DNA of 27,357 bases from a virus. Each line of letters starts with the position of its first letter. The stretch's first letter is position 1. The DNA lies in the UHGV virus genome UHGV-0082481; one strand, given 5' to 3'. Positions 3,968 to 20,604 of this stretch are shown here, in pieces. The translations under genes were made by a program, and so were the position numbers. The notes beneath the pieces are model-generated. The model searched no databases and was not told the DNA's origin. It saw only the letters and a program-made list of their open reading frames with translations.

Positions 3968-4557
3968 ACCGGGCCTCCGGTTGTATCGCCGCCTTTCAGG
4001 ACGCCAGTATGCTGATGCGCATCAACCACGATCCCGTTAGAACTCATCGCTCCGCCGCCCTGGGTAACGCCACCATTGATCACCACTTCGCTGTTAATGC
4101 GCGTGCGGTCAGCCTCCAGTACAAACTCACTGGTTTTCATGGTGATGTTGTCAGCAGCCTCAATGACCATTGATTTGATGCCCCTGACATACCAGCGCCC
4201 GGTGGCGGGTTCGTATTCAAACCAGCCACCGTCAGGATGTTCTGTCACGCAGGCGTCCGCCGACGTCGACGGTGGTGCGAACTGATTCGAATAGATGGCG
4301 GGCAGCGCAAACGCGGTTTCCAGATTGCCGCCCATGCTCAGCACCACCACCTGCTCATCTGGCGACGGGCACCACCATGTACGGGCACCACCGGCGCGTA
4401 GCGTCAGCCAGTTAATCCAGTTGGTTTCAAGCTCGCCTACCTTCACCCGGCACAGCCATTTGTTCCGGTCCACTTCGGTCACAATGCCGGTGCGGATCAG
4501 ATTGGTGATAAGGCGCATAATTTCTGTGAGTTGTGCGTTCATGGTTGCAGTTTGCAT
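3964..4557 (-). CDS. V: Baseplate spike/hub protein (P2 gpV-like)
   Basis: 197-aa ORF, first gene of the V-W-J-I-H-G tail operon; the true start may be a downstream Met (4542 or 4518). Confidence 0.8.
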   Translation of the reverse strand: MQTATMNAQLTEIMRLITNLIRTGIVTEVDRNKWLCRVKVGELETNWINWLTLRAGGARTWWCPSPDEQVVVLSMGGNLETAFALPAIYSNQFAPPSTSADACVTEHPDGGWFEYEPATGRWYVRGIKSMVIEAADNITMKTSEFVLEADRTRINSEVVINGGVTQGGGAMSSNGIVVDAHQHTGVLKGGDTTGGPV

Positions 4558-4574
4558 GAAATCAAAAGAAAATA

Positions 4575-6443
4575 GTGATTTTCAAATTGTATGAAGGGTC
4601 TTACAATCCAATGAATTACAATGAAGAGCTAACCTCATATCTTAATTATTTAGTGGATCTTGAAAAATCCCCTAATTTCGCAGTAATGATTGACGGCGAA
4701 TGGGGAAGCGGGAAAACATGGTTTGTCCGTAAATTAATGAATGAAGAATCACTAAAAGGGAAAGTTAAGCCATTAATGATCTCATTATATGGAATAAAAT
4801 CCACCGAACAAATTGACGAAATAATTTTCAAGCAAATGCATCCCTTCCTTTCATCTAAAGGCATGTTGCTTGCTGGCACACTAACTAAGGCACTAATTAA
4901 AGGCACACTTAAGATTGATTTAAGTGATTCATTCGTTACAAGTGTAGAGGGCTCCCCAGAACTACCCAACGTAAGCATTAAAGACTTTTACTACTCACCA
5001 GAAAACACCATATTGATATTTGATGATCTTGAACGCTGCGAATTAGATTGGAATTCTATATTTGGTTATATAAATAATTTCGTTGAAGAAAAAGAATGCA
5101 AGGTTTTGATTATCGCCAATGAGAGAGAAATATTAAACCCCGCTAGAAATAAAAATCATGATGGTATTTATTTAGATGCAAAAGAAAAAGTTATAGGTAT
5201 AACTTTCAAATATCAACCTCAACATTCTCACGCCTACGAATATTTTCTAAAAAATATAACTAGCGAACTCAACACCATTCTGAACATAAAAAATATTGAG
5301 AGCTTACTCACTCTTTCAGAGTGTAATAACATTAGATTAATTGAAAGGCAAATTTCTTTTTTTGAAAGAATATTCAAAATATTACCAGCACAGTTTCAGC
5401 AAAATTCAGATTTGACACTCAGATTATATCAATTACATTTTATACTCTATTTTGAATCTAATAAAATAAAACGAACCGTTTCTGACTTGTTAACATATAA
5501 AATAGATGATGATAATAAATACACATCCAATTTAATTGAAAAATATGGTACAACTTATTTGTCAAATTTAATCTTAGACGAGGATACCTGGATCGATATA
5601 ATTGACAATCAGAAAATCAATCAAGAAAAAATAATATCTGAATTAATAACATTCGTCAGTGTTTCTAATAAAACAATTGAGCCATGGACACAACTTTGGA
5701 ATTATGATCGATTAAAATACACAGAATTTGAGGAAAATTACAATTCAACACTTCATACGCTTATTAATTTTGAAATATTGAACGAGCATGTTCTTAAGCA
5801 TATTTACGGATTATTACTTCATTTATCCAGAGAACATATAAAACCCATCAACGAACACTATTTAACAAACTTAGCCCACTCTGCTGTTGATATTTTAGCA
5901 GAAAAAGGAATGATACAAACTAGTTATGAAATTTTTGATGAAGACATTAAGGATGAGCGATGGAGAGGATTAACTTTTCATTGCAAAGAAACTAGGGAAT
6001 TCAAGGAGCTTGTTAATTACATAGAACAAAAGAAAAATGTATTAATTGCATATCAACTTAGCCAAGACGCTCAAAAGATATTCAAATTAATACAGTCCGG
6101 AAATCATGAATATTACGCACATCTAAATTTCAACAACAAAGATATTTATTCATTTCACGACAAACCAGTTCTTTATTTTGGTGATGCTGAACAACTAACA
6201 AAAATACTGATAGACTCAACCGAGATGCATTTCTTTGGCTATGCTATAAAAAACCGATACAACAACACCCCTTATCTAAAAGAGCTTTCTGCAGAGCGTT
6301 TTTTCCACCGCGAGCTAATTAGAAAGCTAATTGAAAAGAAAACTCAAATAAACTCAAATATATTATCATTACAAATCGATGAGCTCATAAATGATTGTTT
6401 AACTCCCGCAATAGATAAATTAAAGCAAAGCATTGAAAATTAA
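4575..6443 (+). CDS. KAP-family P-loop NTPase (accessory/moron gene)
   Basis: 622-aa ORF (GTG at 4575; alternative ATG at 4611), strongly AT-rich against GC-rich flanks; Walker A GEWGSGKT (GxWGxGKT) and Walker B-like ILIFDDLER are the KAP NTPase signatures; sits in the S-V intergenic slot, opposite in orientation to the flanking structural operons. Confidence 0.75.
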   Translation: MIFKLYEGSYNPMNYNEELTSYLNYLVDLEKSPNFAVMIDGEWGSGKTWFVRKLMNEESLKGKVKPLMISLYGIKSTEQIDEIIFKQMHPFLSSKGMLLAGTLTKALIKGTLKIDLSDSFVTSVEGSPELPNVSIKDFYYSPENTILIFDDLERCELDWNSIFGYINNFVEEKECKVLIIANEREILNPARNKNHDGIYLDAKEKVIGITFKYQPQHSHAYEYFLKNITSELNTILNIKNIESLLTLSECNNIRLIERQISFFERIFKILPAQFQQNSDLTLRLYQLHFILYFESNKIKRTVSDLLTYKIDDDNKYTSNLIEKYGTTYLSNLILDEDTWIDIIDNQKINQEKIISELITFVSVSNKTIEPWTQLWNYDRLKYTEFEENYNSTLHTLINFEILNEHVLKHIYGLLLHLSREHIKPINEHYLTNLAHSAVDILAEKGMIQTSYEIFDEDIKDERWRGLTFHCKETREFKELVNYIEQKKNVLIAYQLSQDAQKIFKLIQSGNHEYYAHLNFNNKDIYSFHDKPVLYFGDAEQLTKILIDSTEMHFFGYAIKNRYNNTPYLKELSAERFFHRELIRKLIEKKTQINSNILSLQIDELINDCLTPAIDKLKQSIEN

Positions 6444-12430: not shown

Positions 12431-14197
12431 ATGAACACCACACTGACACCCGCAGATCTCGATCCCCGTCGGCAGGCCATGCTGCTGTACTTTCAGGGAT
12501 ACCGCGTAGCCCGCATTGCTGAAATGCTGGGCGAGAAAGTTGCAACCGTTCACAGCTGGAAAAAACGCGACAAGTGGGGTGACTATGGGCCGCTGGATCA
12601 GATGCAGCTCACCACCGCCGCACGCTACTGCCAGCTCATTATGAAGGAGCACAAAGAAGGGAAAGATTTCAAAGAGATTGACCTGCTGGCGCGCCAGTCG
12701 GAGCGCCATGCGCGGATCGGCAAGTTTAACAATGGCGGCAACGAAGCCGACTTAAACCCTAACGTCGCCAACCGCAACAAAGGCCCGCGCCGTCAGCCGG
12801 AAAAGAACGTTTTCACCGATGAACAGATTGAGAAGTTGGAAGAAATCTTCCATTCCTCCATGTTCAACTACCAGCGCCACTGGTGGGAAGCCGGAAAAAC
12901 CAACCGCATCCGCAACCTGCTGAAGTCACGCCAGATCGGCGCGACCTTCTATTTTGCCCGTGAAGCCCTGATTGACGCCCTGCTAACCGGGCGTAACCAG
13001 ATTTTCCTTTCCGCCAGCAAGGCTCAGGCCCACGTCTTTAAGCAGTACATCATCGACTTCGCCAAAGAAGTGGAGGTGGAGCTGAAAGGCGATCCGATGG
13101 TGCTTCCTAACGGGGCCACGCTGTACTTCCTCGGCACCAATGCCCGCACGGCCCAGAGTTACCACGGCAACTTGTATCTGGATGAATATTTCTGGATACC
13201 GAAATTCCAGGAGCTGCGCAAAGTGGCTTCCGGTATGGCTATTCACAAAAAATGGCGACAAACCTATTTTTCCACGCCATCCAGCCTGACACACAGTGCT
13301 TATCCGTTCTGGTCCGGTGCGCTGTTCAACCGAGGGCGCAACAAAGCCGATAAGGTGGACATCGACCTGTCCCACAGCAATCTGGCCCCCGGCCTGCTGT
13401 GCGCAGACGGGCAGTACCGCCAGATAGTCACTGTGGAAGATGCGGTGCGCGGCGGCTGTAACCTGTTCGACCTCGACCAGTTGCGCATGGAGTACAGCCC
13501 GGACGAATACCAGAACCTGCTGATGTGTGAGTTCGTGGACGATCTCGCGTCTGTGTTCCCACTCAGCGAGCTGCAGGCGTGCATGGTGGACAGTTGGGAA
13601 GTCTGGACCGACTTTCATGCACTGGCCCTGCGCCCGTTTGGCTGGCACGAAGTGTGGATCGGATATGACCCGGCGAAAGGTACGCAGAACGGCGACAGCG
13701 CCGGATGCGTGGTGGTGGCGCCGCCAGCCGTGCCGGGCGGTAAGTTCCGCATTCTTGAGCGTCACCAGTGGCGCGGAATGGACTTCCGCGCCCAGGCTGA
13801 CGCCATCAAAAAACTGACCGAACAGTACAACGTGACCTATATCGGTATCGACTCAACCGGCGTTGGTCACGGGGTTTACGAGAACGTGAAAGCGTTTTTT
13901 CCTGCCGTCCGGGAGTTTGTCTACAACCCCAACGTTAAAAACGCCCTGGTACTCAAGGCCTACGACATTATCAGCCACCGCCGTCTGGAGTTTGACGCCG
14001 GACACACCGACATAGCGCAGTCCTTTATGGCAATCCGTCGCGCCACCACCGCCAGTGGCAACCGCCCGACCTATGAAGCCAGCCGCAGCGAAGAAGCCAG
14101 CCACGCCGATCTGGCCTGGGCAACGATGCACGCACTGTTTAACGAACCGCTGCAGGGCGAATCCGCCAATACCAGCAATATTGTGGAGATTTTTTGA
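12431..14197 (+). CDS. P: Terminase large (ATPase) subunit (P2 gpP-like)
   Basis: 588-aa ORF, divergent from O and followed by the portal gene with ATGA overlap, as in P2. Confidence 0.9.
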   Translation: MNTTLTPADLDPRRQAMLLYFQGYRVARIAEMLGEKVATVHSWKKRDKWGDYGPLDQMQLTTAARYCQLIMKEHKEGKDFKEIDLLARQSERHARIGKFNNGGNEADLNPNVANRNKGPRRQPEKNVFTDEQIEKLEEIFHSSMFNYQRHWWEAGKTNRIRNLLKSRQIGATFYFAREALIDALLTGRNQIFLSASKAQAHVFKQYIIDFAKEVEVELKGDPMVLPNGATLYFLGTNARTAQSYHGNLYLDEYFWIPKFQELRKVASGMAIHKKWRQTYFSTPSSLTHSAYPFWSGALFNRGRNKADKVDIDLSHSNLAPGLLCADGQYRQIVTVEDAVRGGCNLFDLDQLRMEYSPDEYQNLLMCEFVDDLASVFPLSELQACMVDSWEVWTDFHALALRPFGWHEVWIGYDPAKGTQNGDSAGCVVVAPPAVPGGKFRILERHQWRGMDFRAQADAIKKLTEQYNVTYIGIDSTGVGHGVYENVKAFFPAVREFVYNPNVKNALVLKAYDIISHRRLEFDAGHTDIAQSFMAIRRATTASGNRPTYEASRSEEASHADLAWATMHALFNEPLQGESANTSNIVEIF

Positions 14198-15228
14198 TGG
14201 GAAAGAGTAAGAAGAACCGCGCTGCGGCGACGAAACAGATCCAGCTTAAAAGTCAAACTACAGCCGAAGCATTCAGCTTCGGCGATCCCGTTCCTGTTCT
14301 GGACCGCCGAGAACTGCTGGATTATGTGGAATGCGTACAGATGGACCGTTGGTATGAGCCGCCCGTCAGCTTTGACGGACTGGCGCGCACCTTCCGCGCC
14401 GCCGTGCATCACAGTTCCCCGATTGCAGTAAAGTGCAACATTCTGACCAGTACCTATATCCCTCATCCGCTGCTCAGCCAGCAGGCTTTTTCGCGTTTTG
14501 TGCAGGACTATCTGGTATTTGGTAACGCCTACCTGGAGAAACGCACGAACCGATTCGGTGAAGTTATCGCTCTTGAGCCTGCGCTTGCAAAATACACCCG
14601 ACGCGGATTAGACCTGGATACCTACTGGTTTATGCAATACGGTATGACAACCCAGCCGTATCAGTTCACGAAAGGCAGCATTTTTCATCTGATGGAACCG
14701 GATATTAATCAGGAGATCTACGGCCTGCCCGGCTATCTTTCTGCCATCCCATCCGCTTTGCTCAACGAGTCCGCCACGCTGTTCCGCCGCAAGTATTACA
14801 TTAACGGCAGTCATGCAGGCTTCATCATGTACATGACCGATGCGGCGCAGAACCAGGAGGATGTGAACAACCTCCGCAACGCGATGAAAAGCGCCAAAGG
14901 TCCAGGCAATTTCCGCAACCTGTTTATGTACTCACCTAATGGCAAAAAGGATGGGCTTCAGATCATTCCTCTGTCAGAAGTTGCGGCGAAGGATGAGTTT
15001 CTGAATATCAAAAATGTCAGCCGCGATGACATGATGGCTGCGCACCGCGTACCACCGCAAATGATGGGGATTATACCTAATAATGTTGGAGGATTTGGGG
15101 ATGTGGAAAAGGCTAGCTGTGTGTTTGTGAGGAATGAGCTAATACCATTACAGGAAAGAATAAAAGGATTAAATAGTTGGTCTAATGAGAATATAATCCA
15201 ATTCAAACCGTATACACTTGAATTCTAA
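14194..15228 (+). CDS. Q: Portal protein (P2 gpQ-like)
   Basis: 344-aa ORF, same length as P2 gpQ, immediately after P. Confidence 0.9.
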   Translation: MMGKSKKNRAAATKQIQLKSQTTAEAFSFGDPVPVLDRRELLDYVECVQMDRWYEPPVSFDGLARTFRAAVHHSSPIAVKCNILTSTYIPHPLLSQQAFSRFVQDYLVFGNAYLEKRTNRFGEVIALEPALAKYTRRGLDLDTYWFMQYGMTTQPYQFTKGSIFHLMEPDINQEIYGLPGYLSAIPSALLNESATLFRRKYYINGSHAGFIMYMTDAAQNQEDVNNLRNAMKSAKGPGNFRNLFMYSPNGKKDGLQIIPLSEVAAKDEFLNIKNVSRDDMMAAHRVPPQMMGIIPNNVGGFGDVEKASCVFVRNELIPLQERIKGLNSWSNENIIQFKPYTLEF

Positions 15229-15231
15229 GAT

Positions 15232-15257
15232 AATGGGCGCCTACATAGGCGCCATTA
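15232..15257. terminator. Hairpin between convergent Q and the 422-aa ATPase gene
   Basis: Inverted repeat aatgggcgcc-tacata-ggcgccatta (self-complementary GGCGCC arms) in the 48-bp convergent intergenic space, A/T-rich flanks. Confidence 0.4.
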
Positions 15258-15276
15258 TCTATAATAAAGACATGAA

Positions 15277-16545
15277 TTAATTTGGCAACTCCAAATCATC
15301 CTTTAGATCTTTGATATCTTGATGTTGCAACCATATTAGGAAGCCTTTATCAACAACATTCAGTTTCCTATTTGTTTGGTCATAATCCAAAATAATAGGC
15401 ATTATATTTTTCTTTATTTGCAAAGACGCCGTTGATTGTAACGACTGAGTAACATTACCCAGGTTTAACTTCTCCCCTCTTGGATGTACACTTTGTAATA
15501 TTGCCCTTATATCTTTAAATTTCAAACCTAATTCAAGTTCACTAATGGTTGATGAAAGGACAGGATATAAAATCCATTTATGCATTTGAAGTTCAGTATC
15601 TTGAAATCCATCTGAAAAATTAATAAGGAAAGAATTGTAACGAGCCGATTGGTCATTAACAATTTTTGCAATGATATCCTTTCCATCCAAACCAGCTCCA
15701 ATAGTTCTTTTTGTTTGCTGAGTCTCTGATATTCCGCATTCAATACACGCACGCCTACATGCTTCTTGCACTAAATAAATACTATTGAGACAGTGTGTTA
15801 CTACATCTGCTTTGAAAGTTGGATCAAAATCAATGTTAAGGAGTAAACCTCCTTTATCAATTGCCATCTCCAGTTCAGAATCTTGCCATTTGTCTGCGTT
15901 AACAGAAATAATCCTGCCAGTTAAGTCACCATTGTAAACAATGAGCCGATTATCTTCTAGCCAAACTCCAACAATTACAAAAATAATGCTTGATGTTTCA
16001 TGAAAGGCTTTTAATGCGATCGAAAAATCTCTTTGAGTTTCGAAAGGCATATAATGAAAATCCTCAAGAACGATAATCTTCTTGAAATTTATAGATTTTA
16101 AAGCCGCTATAACATCATTAACATCATCAACATCAATTTCTAAAGGCGCGGTTACTTGTTCATGAGATTTCGTATCTTCGATCTCGCCTCCGGCACTCGC
16201 CACAAAACCCAAAATAGAAGTTTTTATTGATGCGATTATTTTATTTTTCCCCGTAATACCTTTCTTGGTAGACTGAGTTATTTCGAATCCAGCTCTTTTT
16301 AAAATACTTGCATTCAATTCAGATACATCAGAACGATTCGAACACTGCACCAAAATATAATCATCAGAATTAATACAGTGTTTTCTTACGCAAGTCTTAC
16401 CCTGCTTTGAACTGCCGTAAATAACAATATGTTTCTTTGCTTGTAATTCCTGTTTAAGTTTGAAATCAACATCAGGTCTTTCAATGTAATTAAGTGGCAA
16501 ATCTCTTGAGAGCCCAAAGATATCATTCGTATCAAAAATTTCCAT
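15277..16545 (-). CDS. P-loop ATPase of unknown function (accessory/moron gene)
   Basis: 422-aa ORF, strongly AT-rich; Walker A GSSKQGKT and Walker B-like KIIVLEDFH; convergent with Q, lying between the portal gene and the candidate cos/accessory region. Confidence 0.7.
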   Translation of the reverse strand: MEIFDTNDIFGLSRDLPLNYIERPDVDFKLKQELQAKKHIVIYGSSKQGKTCVRKHCINSDDYILVQCSNRSDVSELNASILKRAGFEITQSTKKGITGKNKIIASIKTSILGFVASAGGEIEDTKSHEQVTAPLEIDVDDVNDVIAALKSINFKKIIVLEDFHYMPFETQRDFSIALKAFHETSSIIFVIVGVWLEDNRLIVYNGDLTGRIISVNADKWQDSELEMAIDKGGLLLNIDFDPTFKADVVTHCLNSIYLVQEACRRACIECGISETQQTKRTIGAGLDGKDIIAKIVNDQSARYNSFLINFSDGFQDTELQMHKWILYPVLSSTISELELGLKFKDIRAILQSVHPRGEKLNLGNVTQSLQSTASLQIKKNIMPIILDYDQTNRKLNVVDKGFLIWLQHQDIKDLKDDLELPN

Positions 16546-16660
16546 TTTAATATTCTCAACGTTCAGAATTTGCTACTAAACATATAATGCTCCGCGTTTT
16601 TTTGCAACTTGTCTCGAATATTTATATGAGATTGTTCTCATATAAATTAACCAGCGCGCG

Positions 16661-16679
16661 CTCGTATCCCCGCCACGCC
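16661..16679 (-). other. Candidate cohesive-end (cos) core
   Basis: Minus strand reads GGCGTGGCGGGGATACGAG; the first 13 nt match the 19-nt cohesive end I recall for phage 186 (GGCGTGGCGGGGAAAGCAT; P2 differs by one base in that stretch). Recalled from memory, not verified. Confidence 0.3.
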
Positions 16680-16728
16680 TGCCCGCTTTATGTAGTGGTT
16701 TTCATGCAGGTGCATGATCTACGCAAAA

Positions 16729-16748
16729 GCCCGCCAGTTCTGGCGGGC
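16729..16748 (-). terminator. GC-rich hairpin with T-run on the minus strand
   Basis: GCCCGCCAG-ttc-TGGCGGGC perfect 9-bp stem preceded on the plus strand by AAAA (TTTT after the stem on the minus strand). Confidence 0.4.
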
Positions 16749-17021
16749 CTTAGCAAAAACGATCCTCAAACGATCATGCAATCTCATGCAGCATAGACAT
16801 GCACAGACGAGTAAAGCGAATCGGACTTTACGCAAGGTGAACTCCTCAGCGGGTATAATCAGTATGTCGGAAAATCTCTAAAAATAAATAATTCGGTTAA
16901 CAGGTATGCTTACAAAAGCATATATTTGATTAAAAATCATGTAAGGGGGAGGATCTCAAACTGAATCGCCACGGGTTTTACAAATTTCGATAGTCTCTCT
17001 AACGTTTCGGATGAGGTCAAA

Positions 17022-17447
17022 ATGAAAAGCTTTTACGTATTAATTTTAATTCTGGTTGCAAGCTTTGTTAGCGTCCCAGTTCAGGCGGTAACAGCTAAAA
17101 ACTATGAGAAAGGAACTAAAGCTCAACAGAAATCAATATCTTACCTTTCATGTGCATTCTATGGCAGTAGCACACAATTAGATCCTAGCTACACGGGGCA
17201 AGTACCTACAGCCGATATCAAGATATTACAGAAAGCAGCTTACCACGCTTACAACGATGCGCTCTCATACTTTGGCTATGAGGAACCAGATCACGAACAA
17301 CGCATAATTGATTATGCTGAATTTGTGGCGTCGCAAGAAGCTGTGTTATGGGATAAGCCGGGAATGAATGGAAAGCAGGTAACACTAATTGCTCGTTCTC
17401 TCTACAATGAGAGTAACTGTAACTTGTTACTGGACTCAATTAAGTAG
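17022..17447 (+). CDS. Small secreted protein of unknown function (accessory gene)
   Basis: 141-aa ORF with a typical signal peptide (MKSFYVLILILVASFVSVPVQA), GAGG about 8 nt upstream of the ATG, AT-rich; opposite in orientation to the flanking phage genes. Confidence 0.6.
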   Translation: MKSFYVLILILVASFVSVPVQAVTAKNYEKGTKAQQKSISYLSCAFYGSSTQLDPSYTGQVPTADIKILQKAAYHAYNDALSYFGYEEPDHEQRIIDYAEFVASQEAVLWDKPGMNGKQVTLIARSLYNESNCNLLLDSIK

Positions 17448-17606
17448 GAAAAAGATGGTATTTTGCCGGTAGTTTCAACCTTAATCTCCGAACCTGTCGC
17501 AGAACGGGCGTTCACTCATCAAATAAACGCCACACCTAACGCCTCACTGTACTCGTTGTTCAACCTTGCTGACGCCAGAACCAAGTTCAGACGCCAGCAA
17601 CTTTTC

Positions 17607-17840
17607 TTAATGCAGCCAGCTGTCGTCTTCCCACACCTTCTGCATAATTTTCATCACTTGTTTTCTTTCTTCGTCCAGTTGCAGTCCGGTCAGTTCCACA
17701 CCGTTAGAGCTACCTTTGCGGATGCGAATTACCGTTTTGGGATACAGGGGGCGCAGATTGCGGTAAAGCTCTGATTCAAGGGCGTCCAGGGTAGACTGGC
17801 TAATCTTCTGCTCTTTATCGATCATTATTTCAATGCGCAT
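17607..17840 (-). CDS. DinI-family protein (186 Tum C-terminal-like; possible SOS antirepressor component)
   Basis: ORF 17607-17912; start at the internal Met (17840) gives a 77-aa protein MRIEIMIDKEQ...KVWEDDSWLH that parallels E. coli DinI (MRIEVTIAK...ETWESADDWFVSE); GAGGTG RBS upstream; downstream of a LexA box. Confidence 0.7.
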   Translation of the reverse strand: MRIEIMIDKEQKISQSTLDALESELYRNLRPLYPKTVIRIRKGSSNGVELTGLQLDEERKQVMKIMQKVWEDDSWLH

Positions 17841-17850
17841 AAAAGTCACC

Positions 17851-18039
17851 TCAACTGATGACATCCATTGAGCGGTTGTATTCGTGAGTTCTGATTTTTG
17901 CCATGAGTTCATCAGTCAACTCAGAAACCCACTGCAGAGCCAGCCCCTTCTCTTCATCACTACACTCACTAGCCGCTACAAGCTTAAGAAAAAAATCAAT
18001 GCGCTGGAGCTTCAAAGACTCCAAAAAATAGTCCTGCAT
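17851..18039 (-). CDS. Small protein, first ORF of the LexA-controlled operon
   Basis: ORF 17851-18138; plausible start at the internal Met (18039, MQDYFLESLKLQRIDFF...) with GGAGG upstream, about 40 nt below the LexA box; ends 10 nt before the DinI-like start in a different frame. Confidence 0.4.
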   Translation of the reverse strand: MQDYFLESLKLQRIDFFLKLVAASECSDEEKGLALQWVSELTDELMAKIRTHEYNRSMDVIS

Positions 18040-18077
18040 CTTTCCTCCTATGACACCAAAAATACTGTATATACAAT

Positions 18078-18097
18078 CACTGTTTATATTTACAGTA
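18078..18097. promoter_or_regulatory. LexA (SOS) box
   Basis: caCTGTttatatttACAGta fits the CTGT-N8-ACAG consensus with an AT-rich spacer; an overlapping half-site TACTGTATATA lies just upstream (18063-18073). Confidence 0.7.
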
Positions 18098-18189
18098 TAT
18101 AATAATCTTACTGATGTAAAACGTTTTTTTACGTTCATCAGCCTGATATGCCTGGTATTATTAAGAGCACGAATTGTTAACCCGCGTAA

Positions 18190-20604
18190 TTAATACAGCT
18201 CCCGCCACTTATCATCTTCCTGCAAACGCTGGTTCCGATAGAAGATACGCAGGCCTGCTCCTGACGGAATACTGCCGCCGCGAAGGAGTAAATCGACTTC
18301 TTTCTCGCTGCCATCAAATCCTCTGGACTTCAGTTCATAGACGAGCTGCTGTCGCTGATGGTCTGTAATTCGCTGTTTGTAGTCTTTACGCCGTTTCGGT
18401 TTCACCAGGCGTAACCTTGCAGCCAGTTCCCGGCGCTCTTTTTTGCTCATACTGTGCAGGTAATCGTGCAACTCCTTGTCATCCATGCGGGTGATATCCG
18501 TTCTGGTATCTCCATCAGCTGATTTGTCTTTCCCTTGTTGGTACAAATTTTCAGCAAGGGGACAGTTATTGCCACGAGTCCAAGGGGCGCAAGCGCCCTG
18601 GTCGGCTGCCGCCTCCTGAACGTCAACGGCCTTACGAACCATTTTCCACTTCACGGCATGAGTGCAGATTTTGCCCTCTGCAATGGGTGACCAGATGCCA
18701 TAAATACGAATGCCGTGATCGCCATAGGCGGTCGGCTCTTCGTTGATTTCATAAGCGGTTCTGATGAGGTGATATTTACGGGGAACCAGTACGCCGCCCT
18801 GCTTCATGATGTAGGTGGCAAAACAACCAGCATCAGCTGCAGCCAGAATGGCATCAAGGCGCGGGTTATCCAGTACCGGCGCACCTGCTTTTTTGTCACC
18901 CTGTTGCCTTGCCGCCTGACCAGCCAGCAATCGCAGTTCACGGTAAGCCTGACGCCCCGGAATGCCAAAGAAGCGGAATTGCTGAACACGATGCAGAGAC
19001 GCCCAGGCATTAACGTATTCAGCGTTATCACGCAGAGATTTACCCGTTTCCTTGCTGATCTCGCCAGCCAGACCACGCCCGTCAATGTTCTTACTGATGT
19101 ATTTCGCGATGTAGCTAGTCGGCGTTCCTTTGCGCGGGTTTATCAGCTCAGACTTAAAGCGTGGCCCCGTGTTATTACCCAGCTCCTCGCGGTCTTCACG
19201 GATAGCAAACTTACGCAACAATGCAGTAATGGCGCGGCGGTCTTTTTTGCGCATGAAACACAACAGGTGCCAGTGAACTGTGCCGTCATGATGCGGCTCA
19301 GCCACCCGCACGCCATACCAGCGCAACCCGGCTTTGTGCATCGCCTTACGAAATGCAGCAAACATGCCGACCAGATAATCGCTGCTTTGTCTTACCGTCG
19401 CGTTTGTCCAGGTCGGGTTTGGTCTGCCGTTATTTAGCGTGGAATGGAAACGCGACGGACAGGTGATAGTGTAGAAAACGGCGCAGTCACCGCGCATTTC
19501 CGCGATAAGCTCCAGACCTTTAACACAGGCCATCATCTCATTGCGGCGATGCGCAGGGTTGCTGCTGCTGGCGTTTACCACATCCTCCATGTCCAGCGTG
19601 TCGCCGTCTTCGTTCACCAGTTCATGAGAACGGAAAAACTCCAGCGACTTACGGCGCTGCTCACGTTTATGCATCACGGCTTCATAGCTGACATAAGGAG
19701 ATGCTTTTTTGCTGACCAGGCAAACAGCGCGCAACTGCTCTTCCCGCCATTCGCAACGCATCTTCCATAATTTCCGATACCACCAGTCGGCGCACAACAT
19801 ACGCGCCAGCGAACCCGGAATGAGTTCATAGGGCACGGGTTTACGGCGGTTTCTTTTCCGACGGAGTTGCTCAAACGCAGGTGGGATGACATCCAGACGC
19901 AGGGTTTCCGCTGCCACCTTTTCCCATGTCTTGCGGATTTCTTCTGGCTTAACGTCATCGGTGGCATACAAATCACCACAAGCTGCATCAAGGCACATAC
20001 TCATATGCGCAGCTACCAGGGTGGATAGGCGTTTCACCTGATCCTGACTCATTTCAGGCAGGATCAGCAGACCGTCCAGCCCTTCATGGCTTGCCATAAA
20101 GCGAAAAGAAGTGGATAGCTGACTGTCGCGTACATGCTCCAGTCGTTCCAGACATGGCTTAATCGTCTCACGCAAATAGCGGGAATAAGCCTTTGGCCTG
20201 CCCAGGCTGCTGAAGTATTCAATACGTTGCATCAGCGGCTTGCTGATATGGGAAGGCTGGGCGTTGACGTCCGCCAGAATGACCATATCCGGATTAAAAC
20301 GCTGCTGCTCATGCGCCAGCTTTGCCCGACTAATGAGCTTATCCTGTTCCATTTCGCGCTGGACAGGATCACGGGATTCATTAAAGAAATAACGCTCCCA
20401 GACCTGATCACTCAGCGCCTCACGGCGCAGCTGTTCCTGCTCGTTATCGGCAGCGTACAGAGTGATCAGGTTTGAAAGCGCAGAAACCGGCGCAACTTCC
20501 GCCGGGTCCAGATAAGGGTTAATGGCCTTTTTCGGGCTGTTCCATGAGAATGCTGCGGCGACCTCGTTAAAGCCGCTGCAGTTGTTCATATCAGCATGGC
20601 TCAT
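18190..20604 (-). CDS. A: Replication initiation protein (P2 gpA-like rolling-circle endonuclease)
   Basis: 804-aa ORF, size and position as for gpA, last large gene of the early operon. Confidence 0.85.

Follow-up and report, generated by a model that had tools for sequence, protein, structure and literature searches.

The DNA that flanks the cos site of P2-like prophages raises the question of what is cargo there, where each piece of cargo begins and ends, and what its products may do. Here, this question is put to one locus of the virus genome UHGV-0082481, analysed as a stretch of 27,357 nucleotides (the window), and in particular to a gene of 141 codons located between cos and a DinI-like gene. 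The window DNA is a P2/186-like (Peduoviridae) prophage and the region under study is its cos-proximal variable locus, with the gene order Q - cargo - cos - cargo - DinI - A. We are highly confident of the anatomy of this joint: the predicted terminase cut falls at 16661–16679, a conserved block of 154 bp lies between two cargo slots, an NLR-like ATPase occupies the left slot and a moron-like cassette of 731 bp the right one. The only intact gene of the right-slot cassette is that of a 141-residue preprotein. Both cos and hotspot belong to textbook or recently published knowledge; the 141-residue protein is an uncharacterised cargo of a known locus type.

The 141-residue protein and its gene

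The open reading frame (ORF) is preceded by a GAGG located 5 nucleotides before its ATG, and runs towards the convergent DinI-like gene, in the opposite direction to the ATPase gene. When it is compared with copies that are 77–91% identical, the ratio of non-synonymous to synonymous substitution rates (dN/dS, method of Nei and Gojobori) is 0.17 for the copy of Klebsiella aerogenes, 0.18 for that of Hafnia and 0.27 for a copy in another tailed prophage. Outside the ORF, the Hafnia copy is homologous over only about 107 nucleotides upstream, and for the other tailed-prophage copy and an Enterobacter copy the homology does not go beyond the ORF. Judged by these ratios and by the limits of the homology, the ORF is a real gene. 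That it has no function in the lysogen, being either a hitch-hiker linked to cos or a lytic gene reached by read-through from the late P-Q operon, is very improbable. The cassette is 99–100% identical to that of the window in 28 of the 32 IMG/VR loci that carry the ORF, a uniformity that recent spread, instead of selection, could explain, and the late P-Q operon is co-directional with the ORF. However, the dN/dS range holds between diverged copies whose homology ends at the ORF ends, the family keeps its full length and a set of invariant residues even among members of about 25% identity, and read-through would have to pass a strong tQ-like hairpin directly after Q and then the intervening ATPase cassette.

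The amino-terminus reads MKSFYVLILILVASFVSVPVQA, continued by VT after the predicted cleavage site, with a lysine at position 2, a maximum 12-residue hydropathy of 3.0 and V-Q-A at positions -3 to -1. As judged by inspection and hydropathy, the signal peptide consists of MK, 17 hydrophobic residues and VQA, followed by the first valine of the mature chain, and contains neither a lipobox nor a twin-arginine motif. The same layout, MK followed by a hydrophobic stretch and AxA, is found at the amino-terminus of all family members, at least 20 in number. By all of these sequence criteria, the product is predicted to be exported by Sec. The earlier note on this DNA had described an ORF of this length with a clean signal peptide, two cysteines and an orientation opposed to its neighbours, and each of these features is present.

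The mature protein has 119 residues, a mass of 13.3 kDa, an isoelectric point of 5.3 and two cysteines, Cys44 and Cys133. Across family members down to about 25% identity, five residues are invariant (C44, W110, Y128, N132 and C133), and the best-conserved stretch is I-I-D-Y-A-E-F-V-A-S-Q-E-A-V-L-W-D-K-P-G-M-N. The structure prediction proposed in the earlier note gave a confident result: AlphaFold2, supplied with the mature sequence and a 20-sequence alignment, returned an all-helical model with a predicted local distance difference test score (pLDDT) of 95.3 and a predicted TM-score of 0.87, where a previous model that included the signal peptide had a pLDDT of 77. The model contains five helices, formed by residues 3–31, 41–61, 69–88, 98–108 and 111–118 of the mature protein. 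A disulfide between Cys44 and Cys133, both invariant across the family, probably stabilises the fold. No acid/His/Ser constellation is conserved across the family. Because only structural residues and the W110-D-K-P-G-x-N loop are conserved, with no catalytic constellation, the protein is more likely to be a stoichiometric binder than an enzyme.

The cos block and its two cargo slots

The cos sites of 186 and P2 have 19-nucleotide 5' cohesive ends (Ziermann & Calendar 1990, cited by Rousset 2022, PMC9122126). The annotated genome ends of 186 (NC_001317) and P2 (NC_001895) were retrieved, and their circular junctions were rebuilt and aligned with the window. Because the window aligns with both junctions across the region, column for column with the annotated cos, the cohesive end could be predicted (Table 1); it reads GGCGTGGCGGGGATACGAG, against GGCGTGGCGGGGAAAGCAT in 186 and GGCGAGGCGGGGAAAGCAC in P2. 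The 13-mer GGCGTGGCGGGGA, which had been pointed out as a cos-like motif matching the 186/P2 cohesive end, occurs once in the window (16667–16679, minus strand; 0.03 matches expected by chance), and the match holds: it equals the first 13 nucleotides of the annotated 19-nucleotide cos of 186, with one mismatch in 13 to P2, and the flanks align on both sides. Over the whole 19-mer, 14 of 19 nucleotides agree with 186, including the leading 13 of 13. On the A-gene side, the flank of the window (...TGCATGAAAACCACTACATAAAGCGGGCA) corresponds to ...TGCATTAAAACCGACCCATAAAGTGGGCA in 186, and on the Q side CGCGCGCT corresponds to TGCGCGCC. When 186 and P2 are considered together, conservation extends from the right-end flank (TGCATGAAAACC...CATAAAGCGGGCA) through the 19-mer into the left-end flank (CGCGCGCT), and about 125 bp around the 19-nucleotide end also align with both cos sites. 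No second cos-like sequence is present beside Q. The site is a genuine one of the P2/186 type, as predicted by homology to the annotated ends of these two phages.

Like the cos sites of 186 and P2, that of the window is located between the portal gene Q and the replication gene A, with conserved flanks and right-end TGCAT repeats. It differs from them in the last 6 nucleotides of the 19-mer (ATACGAG versus AAGCAT/AAGCAC), a variant end that is common to RE-2010, 500465-1 and Klebsiella prophages; Salmonella phage RE-2010 and prophages of K. aerogenes have the complete 19-mer of the window. Two further differences are a GC hairpin inside the block and the distance from Q, which is 1.4 kb in the window as against about 190 bp in 186 and P2 because cargo has been inserted between Q and cos. 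The CATGCA/TGCAT repeats, shared with P2 and 186, lie on the A side at 16703–16716 and 16775–16803 and are plausible terminase-recognition elements. The block as a whole is present in 1275 of 5426 complete E. coli genomes. The span to which attention had first been drawn (16546–17447) runs together three distinct elements, namely the conserved cos block, the 5' flank of the ATPase cassette on one side of it and, on the other, the ORF cassette, whose true end is at 17535; when this span was searched with megablast, 47 deposited phages of Klebsiella, Salmonella, Escherichia, Erwinia and Yersinia shared only the cos block with it, at 93–97% identity.

The cos-block hairpin folds with a free energy of -27.6 kcal/mol (z = -5.2; none of 200 shuffled sequences folds as well). 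RE-2010 and 500465-1 have kept it, in K. aerogenes it is degenerate, the stem is weaker in 186, and P2 lacks it. The earlier note was right about the presence of a strong hairpin and wrong in counting it with the cargo, because it lies inside the conserved block and is kept in relatives whatever their cargo. It probably acts as an intrinsic terminator, which would stop transcription from the side of the LexA-controlled DinI operon and A before cos is reached. This role would be comparable to that of t95b in 186, with the difference that t95b is located further from cos.

On either side of the block, the relatives diverge sharply. To the right, the slot is empty in E. coli SCU-106 and phage 500465-1, with 7 bp in place of the 731 bp, and in E. 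coli PK5074 it holds 1246 bp encoding a 280-residue protein with multiple transmembrane segments and a 71-residue protein. To the left, homology to relatives ends about 10 nucleotides past the 19-mer, and the interval between Q and cos contains in different relatives a STAS-like gene with a hypothetical gene, TIR, AIPR or nSTAND genes, or nothing. Q, cos and the ORF could be located together in 34 loci, and clustering of their left interval gave 24 sequence clusters of 228–3378 bp, none of which contains the ATPase of the window. The window's combination of ATPase and ORF is found in no complete E. coli genome, and in PK5074 the window's ATPase gene stands beside the different right-slot cargo just described. 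As left and right cargos assort freely, the two are independent and cos is the recombination joint between them. A functional link between the ATPase and the 141-residue protein was considered and rejected, since the slots assort independently.

When about 30 IMG/VR contigs are compared with the window, identity is 96–100% over the right arm (from cos through the ORF and DinI to the 5' part of A) and only 78–88% at the end of the Q gene (14900–15228). The divergence at the end of Q, set against a nearly identical right arm, indicates that recombination at or near cos joins different arms. The predicted cos also settles on which side of the cut each cargo gene lies, a point raised in the earlier note. 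The ATPase is located between Q and cos, on the left-end side, and the 141-residue protein gene is on the right-end side with A and DinI, so that virion DNA would start with cos-ATPase-Q and end with A-DinI-ORF-cos. The P2 hotspot thus consists of two independently assorting slots on either side of the 154-bp block, as the present comparison resolves it.

The right-slot cassette of the window has the traits of a moron, namely sharp junctions between presence and absence and a deviating GC content, which is 40.5% as against 49.8% in the rest of the window. Like the lambda morons bor and lom (Cumby et al. 2012, PMC3594210), it is a separate AT-rich insertion that some collinear genomes have and others lack, opposed to its neighbours, with an exported product and an occurrence in several unrelated phage types. 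It is unlike them in carrying the scar of a deleted upstream gene and in that its promoter is putative. The proposal that the ORF is accessory cargo agrees with its presence or absence between otherwise collinear prophages. It had also been held that absence from close relatives would refute this; the gene is indeed absent from many of them, where the slot is empty, but such absence defines accessory cargo rather than arguing against it.

In the left slot, the 422-residue ATPase, which also has a weak Pfam AAA_22 match, is a defence candidate as judged by its sequence matches. The ATPase cassette has a GC content of 33.8%, and over the whole of 15200–17600 the content falls from about 50–55% to 33–43%. 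In Table S5B, an identical ATPase is system 104, 'AAA_35/NB-ARC, NLR-like' (Rousset 2022, PMC9122126). A perfect 11-bp inverted repeat, TTTATATGAGA-TTGT-TCTCATATAAA, is present in the 5' flank of the ATPase gene at 16621–16646, 5 nucleotides from the cos block. It is assigned to the ATPase cassette because it is also found in E. coli PK5074, where the homology starts from 16529, and could belong to the promoter region or act as an operator.

Of the flanking genes, the longest ORF of the DinI-like gene has 101 codons, while the RefSeq form in identical prophages has 77 residues (234 nucleotides); as 186 tum has several nested starts, alternative initiation may occur here as well. A perfect LexA-box core CTGT-N8-ACAG (CTGTTTATATTTACAG) is located at 18080–18095, upstream of the phrog_698 ORF and the DinI-like operon. 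The arrangement of box and operon matches the SOS-controlled p95/tum layout of phage 186, and the prophage is for this reason probably SOS-inducible through a Tum-like antirepressor. At the other end of the locus, a strong hairpin (GATAATGGGCGCC-loop-GGCGCCATTATC, 15228–15262, -20.3 kcal/mol, z = -5.7) stands directly after the stop codon of Q. It is the positional equivalent of tQ of P2 and tW of 186, retained although cargo separates Q from cos. The hairpin that follows the DinI-like gene forms, on the minus strand, an 11+4-bp stem that is part of a 96-nucleotide fold of -28.4 kcal/mol (z = -1.7). A scan of 16300–18300 against Rfam returned zero RNA families.

Table 1. Positions of the features of the cos-proximal locus and of the neighbouring genes in the window.
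Feature	Position	Strand	Remarks
Terminase P	12431–14197	+	plus-strand late gene
Portal Q	14194–15228	+	Pfam Phage_portal
NLR-like AAA ATPase, 422 residues	15277–16545	-	left-slot cargo; PADLOC PDC-S59, E = 4.8e-72
Conserved cos block, 154 bp	16651–16804	-	holds cohesive end, CATGCA/TGCAT repeats and hairpin
Predicted 19-nucleotide cohesive end	16661–16679	-	aligned with annotated cos of 186 and P2
Strong GC hairpin in cos block	16725–16751 (stem 16729–16749)	-	UUUU follows on minus strand
Right-slot cassette, 731 bp	16805–17535	+	40.5% GC; holds the 141-residue protein gene; sharp boundaries against relatives
Candidate sigma-70 promoter	16897–16926	+	TTAACA-18-TATATT; consensus scan, 10/12 matches
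Pseudogene remnant	16934–16993	+	last 19 codons and stop of gene for protein with two transmembrane segments; matches 3' end of Hafnia partner gene
Predicted exported protein, 141 residues (phrog_7437)	17022–17447	+	predicted signal peptide, residues 1–22 (17022–17087)
Hairpin directly after DinI-like stop	17566–17600	-	outside cassette; position comparable to 186 t95a
DinI-like (Tum-type) gene	17607–17912	-	conserved right-arm neighbour; Pfam DinI, 1.3e-22
Replication protein A	18190–20604	-	Phage_GPA, 1.4e-127

Relatives of the gene and a lost partner

The 141-residue protein matches phrog_7437, a family listed with function not known, over its full length (E = 1.5e-98, positions 1–141 of 141). 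A word-indexed search of 5.8 billion proteins returned 7 clusters, an exhaustive HMMER search of 1.84 billion representatives gave 17 matches, about 14 of them genuine and all of 125–170 residues, and a profile search added a few further members from Salmonella, Citrobacter and Klebsiella. The family is small and restricted to gut Enterobacterales, where it occurs in P2-like and other tailed prophages and in IncFIB plasmids. Pfam searches with 16 family members gave scattered noise only, two profiles run against the PDB sequences gave nothing (for the later one, zero matches at E <= 10), tblastn of the ORF against 50,697 deposited phage genomes had no match, and a scan of the GTDB species-representative genomes found no relative. 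Gene and cos are found together in at least 101 complete E. coli genomes (about 2%).

The earlier note had suggested looking for homologues in the cargo regions of other prophages, and this is where almost all of them are. The same right slot is occupied in P2-like prophages of K. aerogenes, where four different left cargos accompany it. Hafnia has the gene in a P2-like prophage, between the tail genes S and V and ahead of a PDC-S11 defence candidate; the S-V cargo of Hafnia alvei SITA01000031 (7333–9640) consists of a protein with two transmembrane segments, the 141-residue homologue and a 338-residue PDC-S11 match (8.3e-110), and the S-V position is a second cargo site in P2-like genomes. 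Other copies lie at the end of another tailed prophage, after the tail-spike gene and adjoining the trp operon; in elements of K. aerogenes and Enterobacter, adjacent to an integrase; at the end of a Citrobacter prophage with T5orf172, SRAP, UmuDC and DinI; and on a Salmonella plasmid, between insertion sequence (IS) elements and a mer operon. A homologue of 27–32% identity is present on 12 IncFIB plasmids of 105–230 kb that carry phage-type genes and are probably phage-plasmids. All of these contexts are mobile, and almost all are cargo positions of temperate phages, of the moron type.

In Hafnia and on K. aerogenes contig LAAU01000005, the homologue is located downstream of a gene for a 215–219-residue protein with two transmembrane segments, with gaps of 20 and 74 nucleotides, respectively; the Hafnia protein has 215 residues. 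The partner proteins of Hafnia and K. aerogenes are 29–30% identical, and the gene pairs are conserved at 29–34% identity across these two distant contexts. Both predicted transmembrane segments of the partner are amino-terminal, and by the positive-inside rule its carboxy-terminal domain is predicted to be periplasmic. The end of such a gene survives in the window. The remnant reads KSCKGEDLKLNRHGFYKFR before its stop codon, as against KSGKWEDLKPWEFYRFRDAL before the stop codon in Hafnia; tblastn finds the same remnant in the K. aerogenes cassettes (64% identity over 28 residues, E = 0.003), and DNA alignment reveals a 25-nucleotide deletion and stop codons upstream of it. Because a remnant of the partner gene is kept both in the window and in the P2-like cassettes of K. 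aerogenes, the cos-slot cassette is seen to be a truncated two-gene module. The partner family is small and unannotated, matches zero families of PADLOC-DB v2, and also occurs solitary, adjoining a HEPN gene in Enterobacter. No homology of the Orf97 protein of phage 186 to the partner family was found.

The K. aerogenes element on LAAU01000005 (6267–8635) is located beside a prophage integrase and has the gene for the protein with two transmembrane segments followed by genes for signal-peptide proteins of 131, 116, 157 and 141 residues. Starts and stops overlap among these four genes, three of which lie beyond the conserved pair. The 157-residue protein ends in LYSDKNCDLLK, which resembles the carboxy-terminus of the family. 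Its paralogy is unproven, with a weak hmmsearch match (E = 4.8e-4) and an hhalign alignment covering the signal peptide alone.

The conserved gene pairs, the partner-gene remnant kept ahead of the ORF both in the window and in P2-like cassettes of K. aerogenes, and a topology that would place the carboxy-terminal domain of the partner in the periplasm fit a second reading, in which the 141-residue protein is the surviving half of a two-component module: a periplasmic antidote, regulator or sensor of the partner, which as an orphan might, for example, neutralise the copies of other elements. We consider this improbable. Purifying selection acts between two lineages that both lack the partner (the ratio of 0.17 between the window and the K. 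aerogenes copy), the 141-residue protein gene is solitary in most contexts, and, as the partner family is also found alone, the two genes are separable.

Possible roles of the exported protein

The region next to the cos site between gpA and gpQ has been described as a defence hotspot of P2 (Rousset 2022, PMC9122126), and the locus of the window, between the same two genes and next to cos, is this hotspot (tin-old, 'TO' region). The 141-residue protein, as WP_021561694, is listed in Table S5A of the same study as 'hypothetical' in several arrangements, and is not found in the portion of its curated system table considered here (Rousset 2022, PMC9122126); it carries no defence annotation in the work on the TO hotspot. 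WP_021561694 is the 141-residue protein of a 99.9%-identical locus in E. coli ESBL 15. In P2, the same locus holds the exclusion genes old and tin. The 141-residue protein gene is transcribed away from cos like these two, but its product is predicted to be exported, whereas Old and Tin are cytoplasmic.

In 186, the right slot contains orf97, downstream of tum, for which the GenBank record notes that 'expression from plasmid blocks 186 infection'. Orf97 (1605–2336) has two predicted amino-terminal transmembrane segments joined by a positively charged loop, followed by about 190 residues of extracytoplasmic domain, and looks like an envelope-level exclusion protein. The 141-residue protein gene and orf97 are alike in that both are located between the DinI/Tum gene and cos and encode an envelope-directed product. 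The two proteins share no sequence similarity, and one is soluble where the other is membrane-anchored; likewise, orf97 belongs to the SOS operon and is read in the same direction as tum, while the 141-residue protein gene is antisense and has its own putative promoter. In Salmonella phage RE-2010 (NC_019488), the slot between cos and DinI contains an unannotated ORF of 243 codons on the minus strand (4202–4933), with an LTGC lipobox (…LAVILTGC). It was considered as an Orf97 homologue and rejected, as there is no homology and the equal length is coincidental.

Small phage proteins that are exported by Sec and act in the periplasm in superinfection exclusion include Spackle (Sp) of T4 and Sim of P1. 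The comparison of the 141-residue protein with Spackle and Sim is a mechanistic analogy only, with no sequence similarity and no Foldseek similarity to the PDB at E < 1. By analogy with Orf97 and the RE-2010 ORF, we tentatively favour a role of the 141-residue protein as a prophage-expressed, envelope-level exclusion factor. The view of the earlier note, that proteins exported from this position are usually conversion or exclusion factors, is plausible for this one but unproven. The gene would be transcribed in the lysogen from its own promoter, away from cos, as P2 old and tin are. The product would be exported by Sec and cleaved after VQA22, and would fold in the periplasm into a compact five-helix domain, with a probable disulfide between Cys44 and Cys133. 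It would then bind a conserved component of the periplasm or inner membrane, or an ejection protein of the incoming phage, and so block entry of the superinfecting genome. The gene would descend from the two-gene module, the partner being dispensable in P2-like phages.

Several points weigh against this proposal. Neither homology, nor a fold match, nor a conserved neighbour ties the protein to exclusion. Scans of the ORF against Pfam, NCBIfam and PADLOC-DB v2 gave no match. A Foldseek comparison of the pLDDT-95 model with the PDB found nothing at E < 1 (best E 1.1, TM-score below 0.4); it would cover exclusion, lysozyme-inhibitor and toxin-immunity proteins deposited there, but which families the library represents was not checked. 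In the promoter scan, the candidate promoter is a consensus match only and its region shows no overall enrichment relative to shuffled sequences, and folding analysis found no significant structure that could serve as a dedicated terminator 3' of the ORF. Other right-slot cargo of E. coli includes proteins that are apparently cytoplasmic (DUF2971, HNH endonuclease), as are Old and Tin of P2, and the trend towards envelope proteins in the right slot rests on a handful of cases. The analogy with Orf97, the RE-2010 lipoprotein ORF and the PK5074 protein with multiple transmembrane segments is suggestive of an envelope role, not strong. Lastly, the conserved loop suggests a conserved target, which would fit host physiology equally well.

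The candidate promoter is partly conserved in the K. aerogenes cassette (CTAACA...TATGTT), and, as the best promoter-like site, it sits at the edge of the partner-gene scar. The hairpin 3' of the DinI-like gene was considered as a bidirectional terminator that would also serve the ORF, and was rejected as it is weak on the plus strand. Among the Foldseek results, ferritin-type alignments (of both models with the PDB, and of the pLDDT-77 model also with BFVD) were rejected as junk, with E > 1 and root mean square deviations of about 15 Å.

A role in host physiology would make the protein a conversion factor for host fitness, unrelated to phage: a periplasmic binder directed against an insult that acts in the periplasm. 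Orphan immunity to type VI secretion system effectors or bacteriocins, inhibition of a host lysozyme or protease, and an envelope-stress chaperone are variants of this explanation. The gene is found solitary across unrelated mobile elements, including the Salmonella plasmid segment with IS elements and mer and the IncFIB plasmids; the family is limited to gut Enterobacterales; and the W-D-K-P-G-x-N loop and the probable disulfide would resemble those of small periplasmic inhibitors. Yet about ten contexts reveal no cognate toxin gene adjacent to it, there is no Pfam or PDB similarity to known immunity or inhibitor families, and nearly all occurrences are in temperate-phage genomes, not in effector-immunity islands, so that a host-fitness role appears rather unlikely. 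Returning to the exclusion proposal, its widest form would make the protein the founder of a new fold family of periplasmic phage-entry blockers, originally paired with the two-transmembrane-segment partner, that bind an envelope component through the invariant W-D-K-P-G-x-N loop. The right slot of 186-like phages would then be specialised for envelope exclusion (Orf97, the RE-2010 lipoprotein and the 141-residue protein), and the left slot for intracellular abortive infection. This generalisation is speculative, and we regard it as quite doubtful.

The association of one right-slot cassette with at least 24 left-slot cargos marks cos as a recombination joint. The exported family, with a confident model and no PDB relative, is a cheap and well-defined candidate for assays of exclusion and of envelope protection. 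Defence catalogues are biased towards cytoplasmic systems, with envelope-acting ones under-represented, and the proposed role of the 141-residue protein, if true, would add one to the latter.

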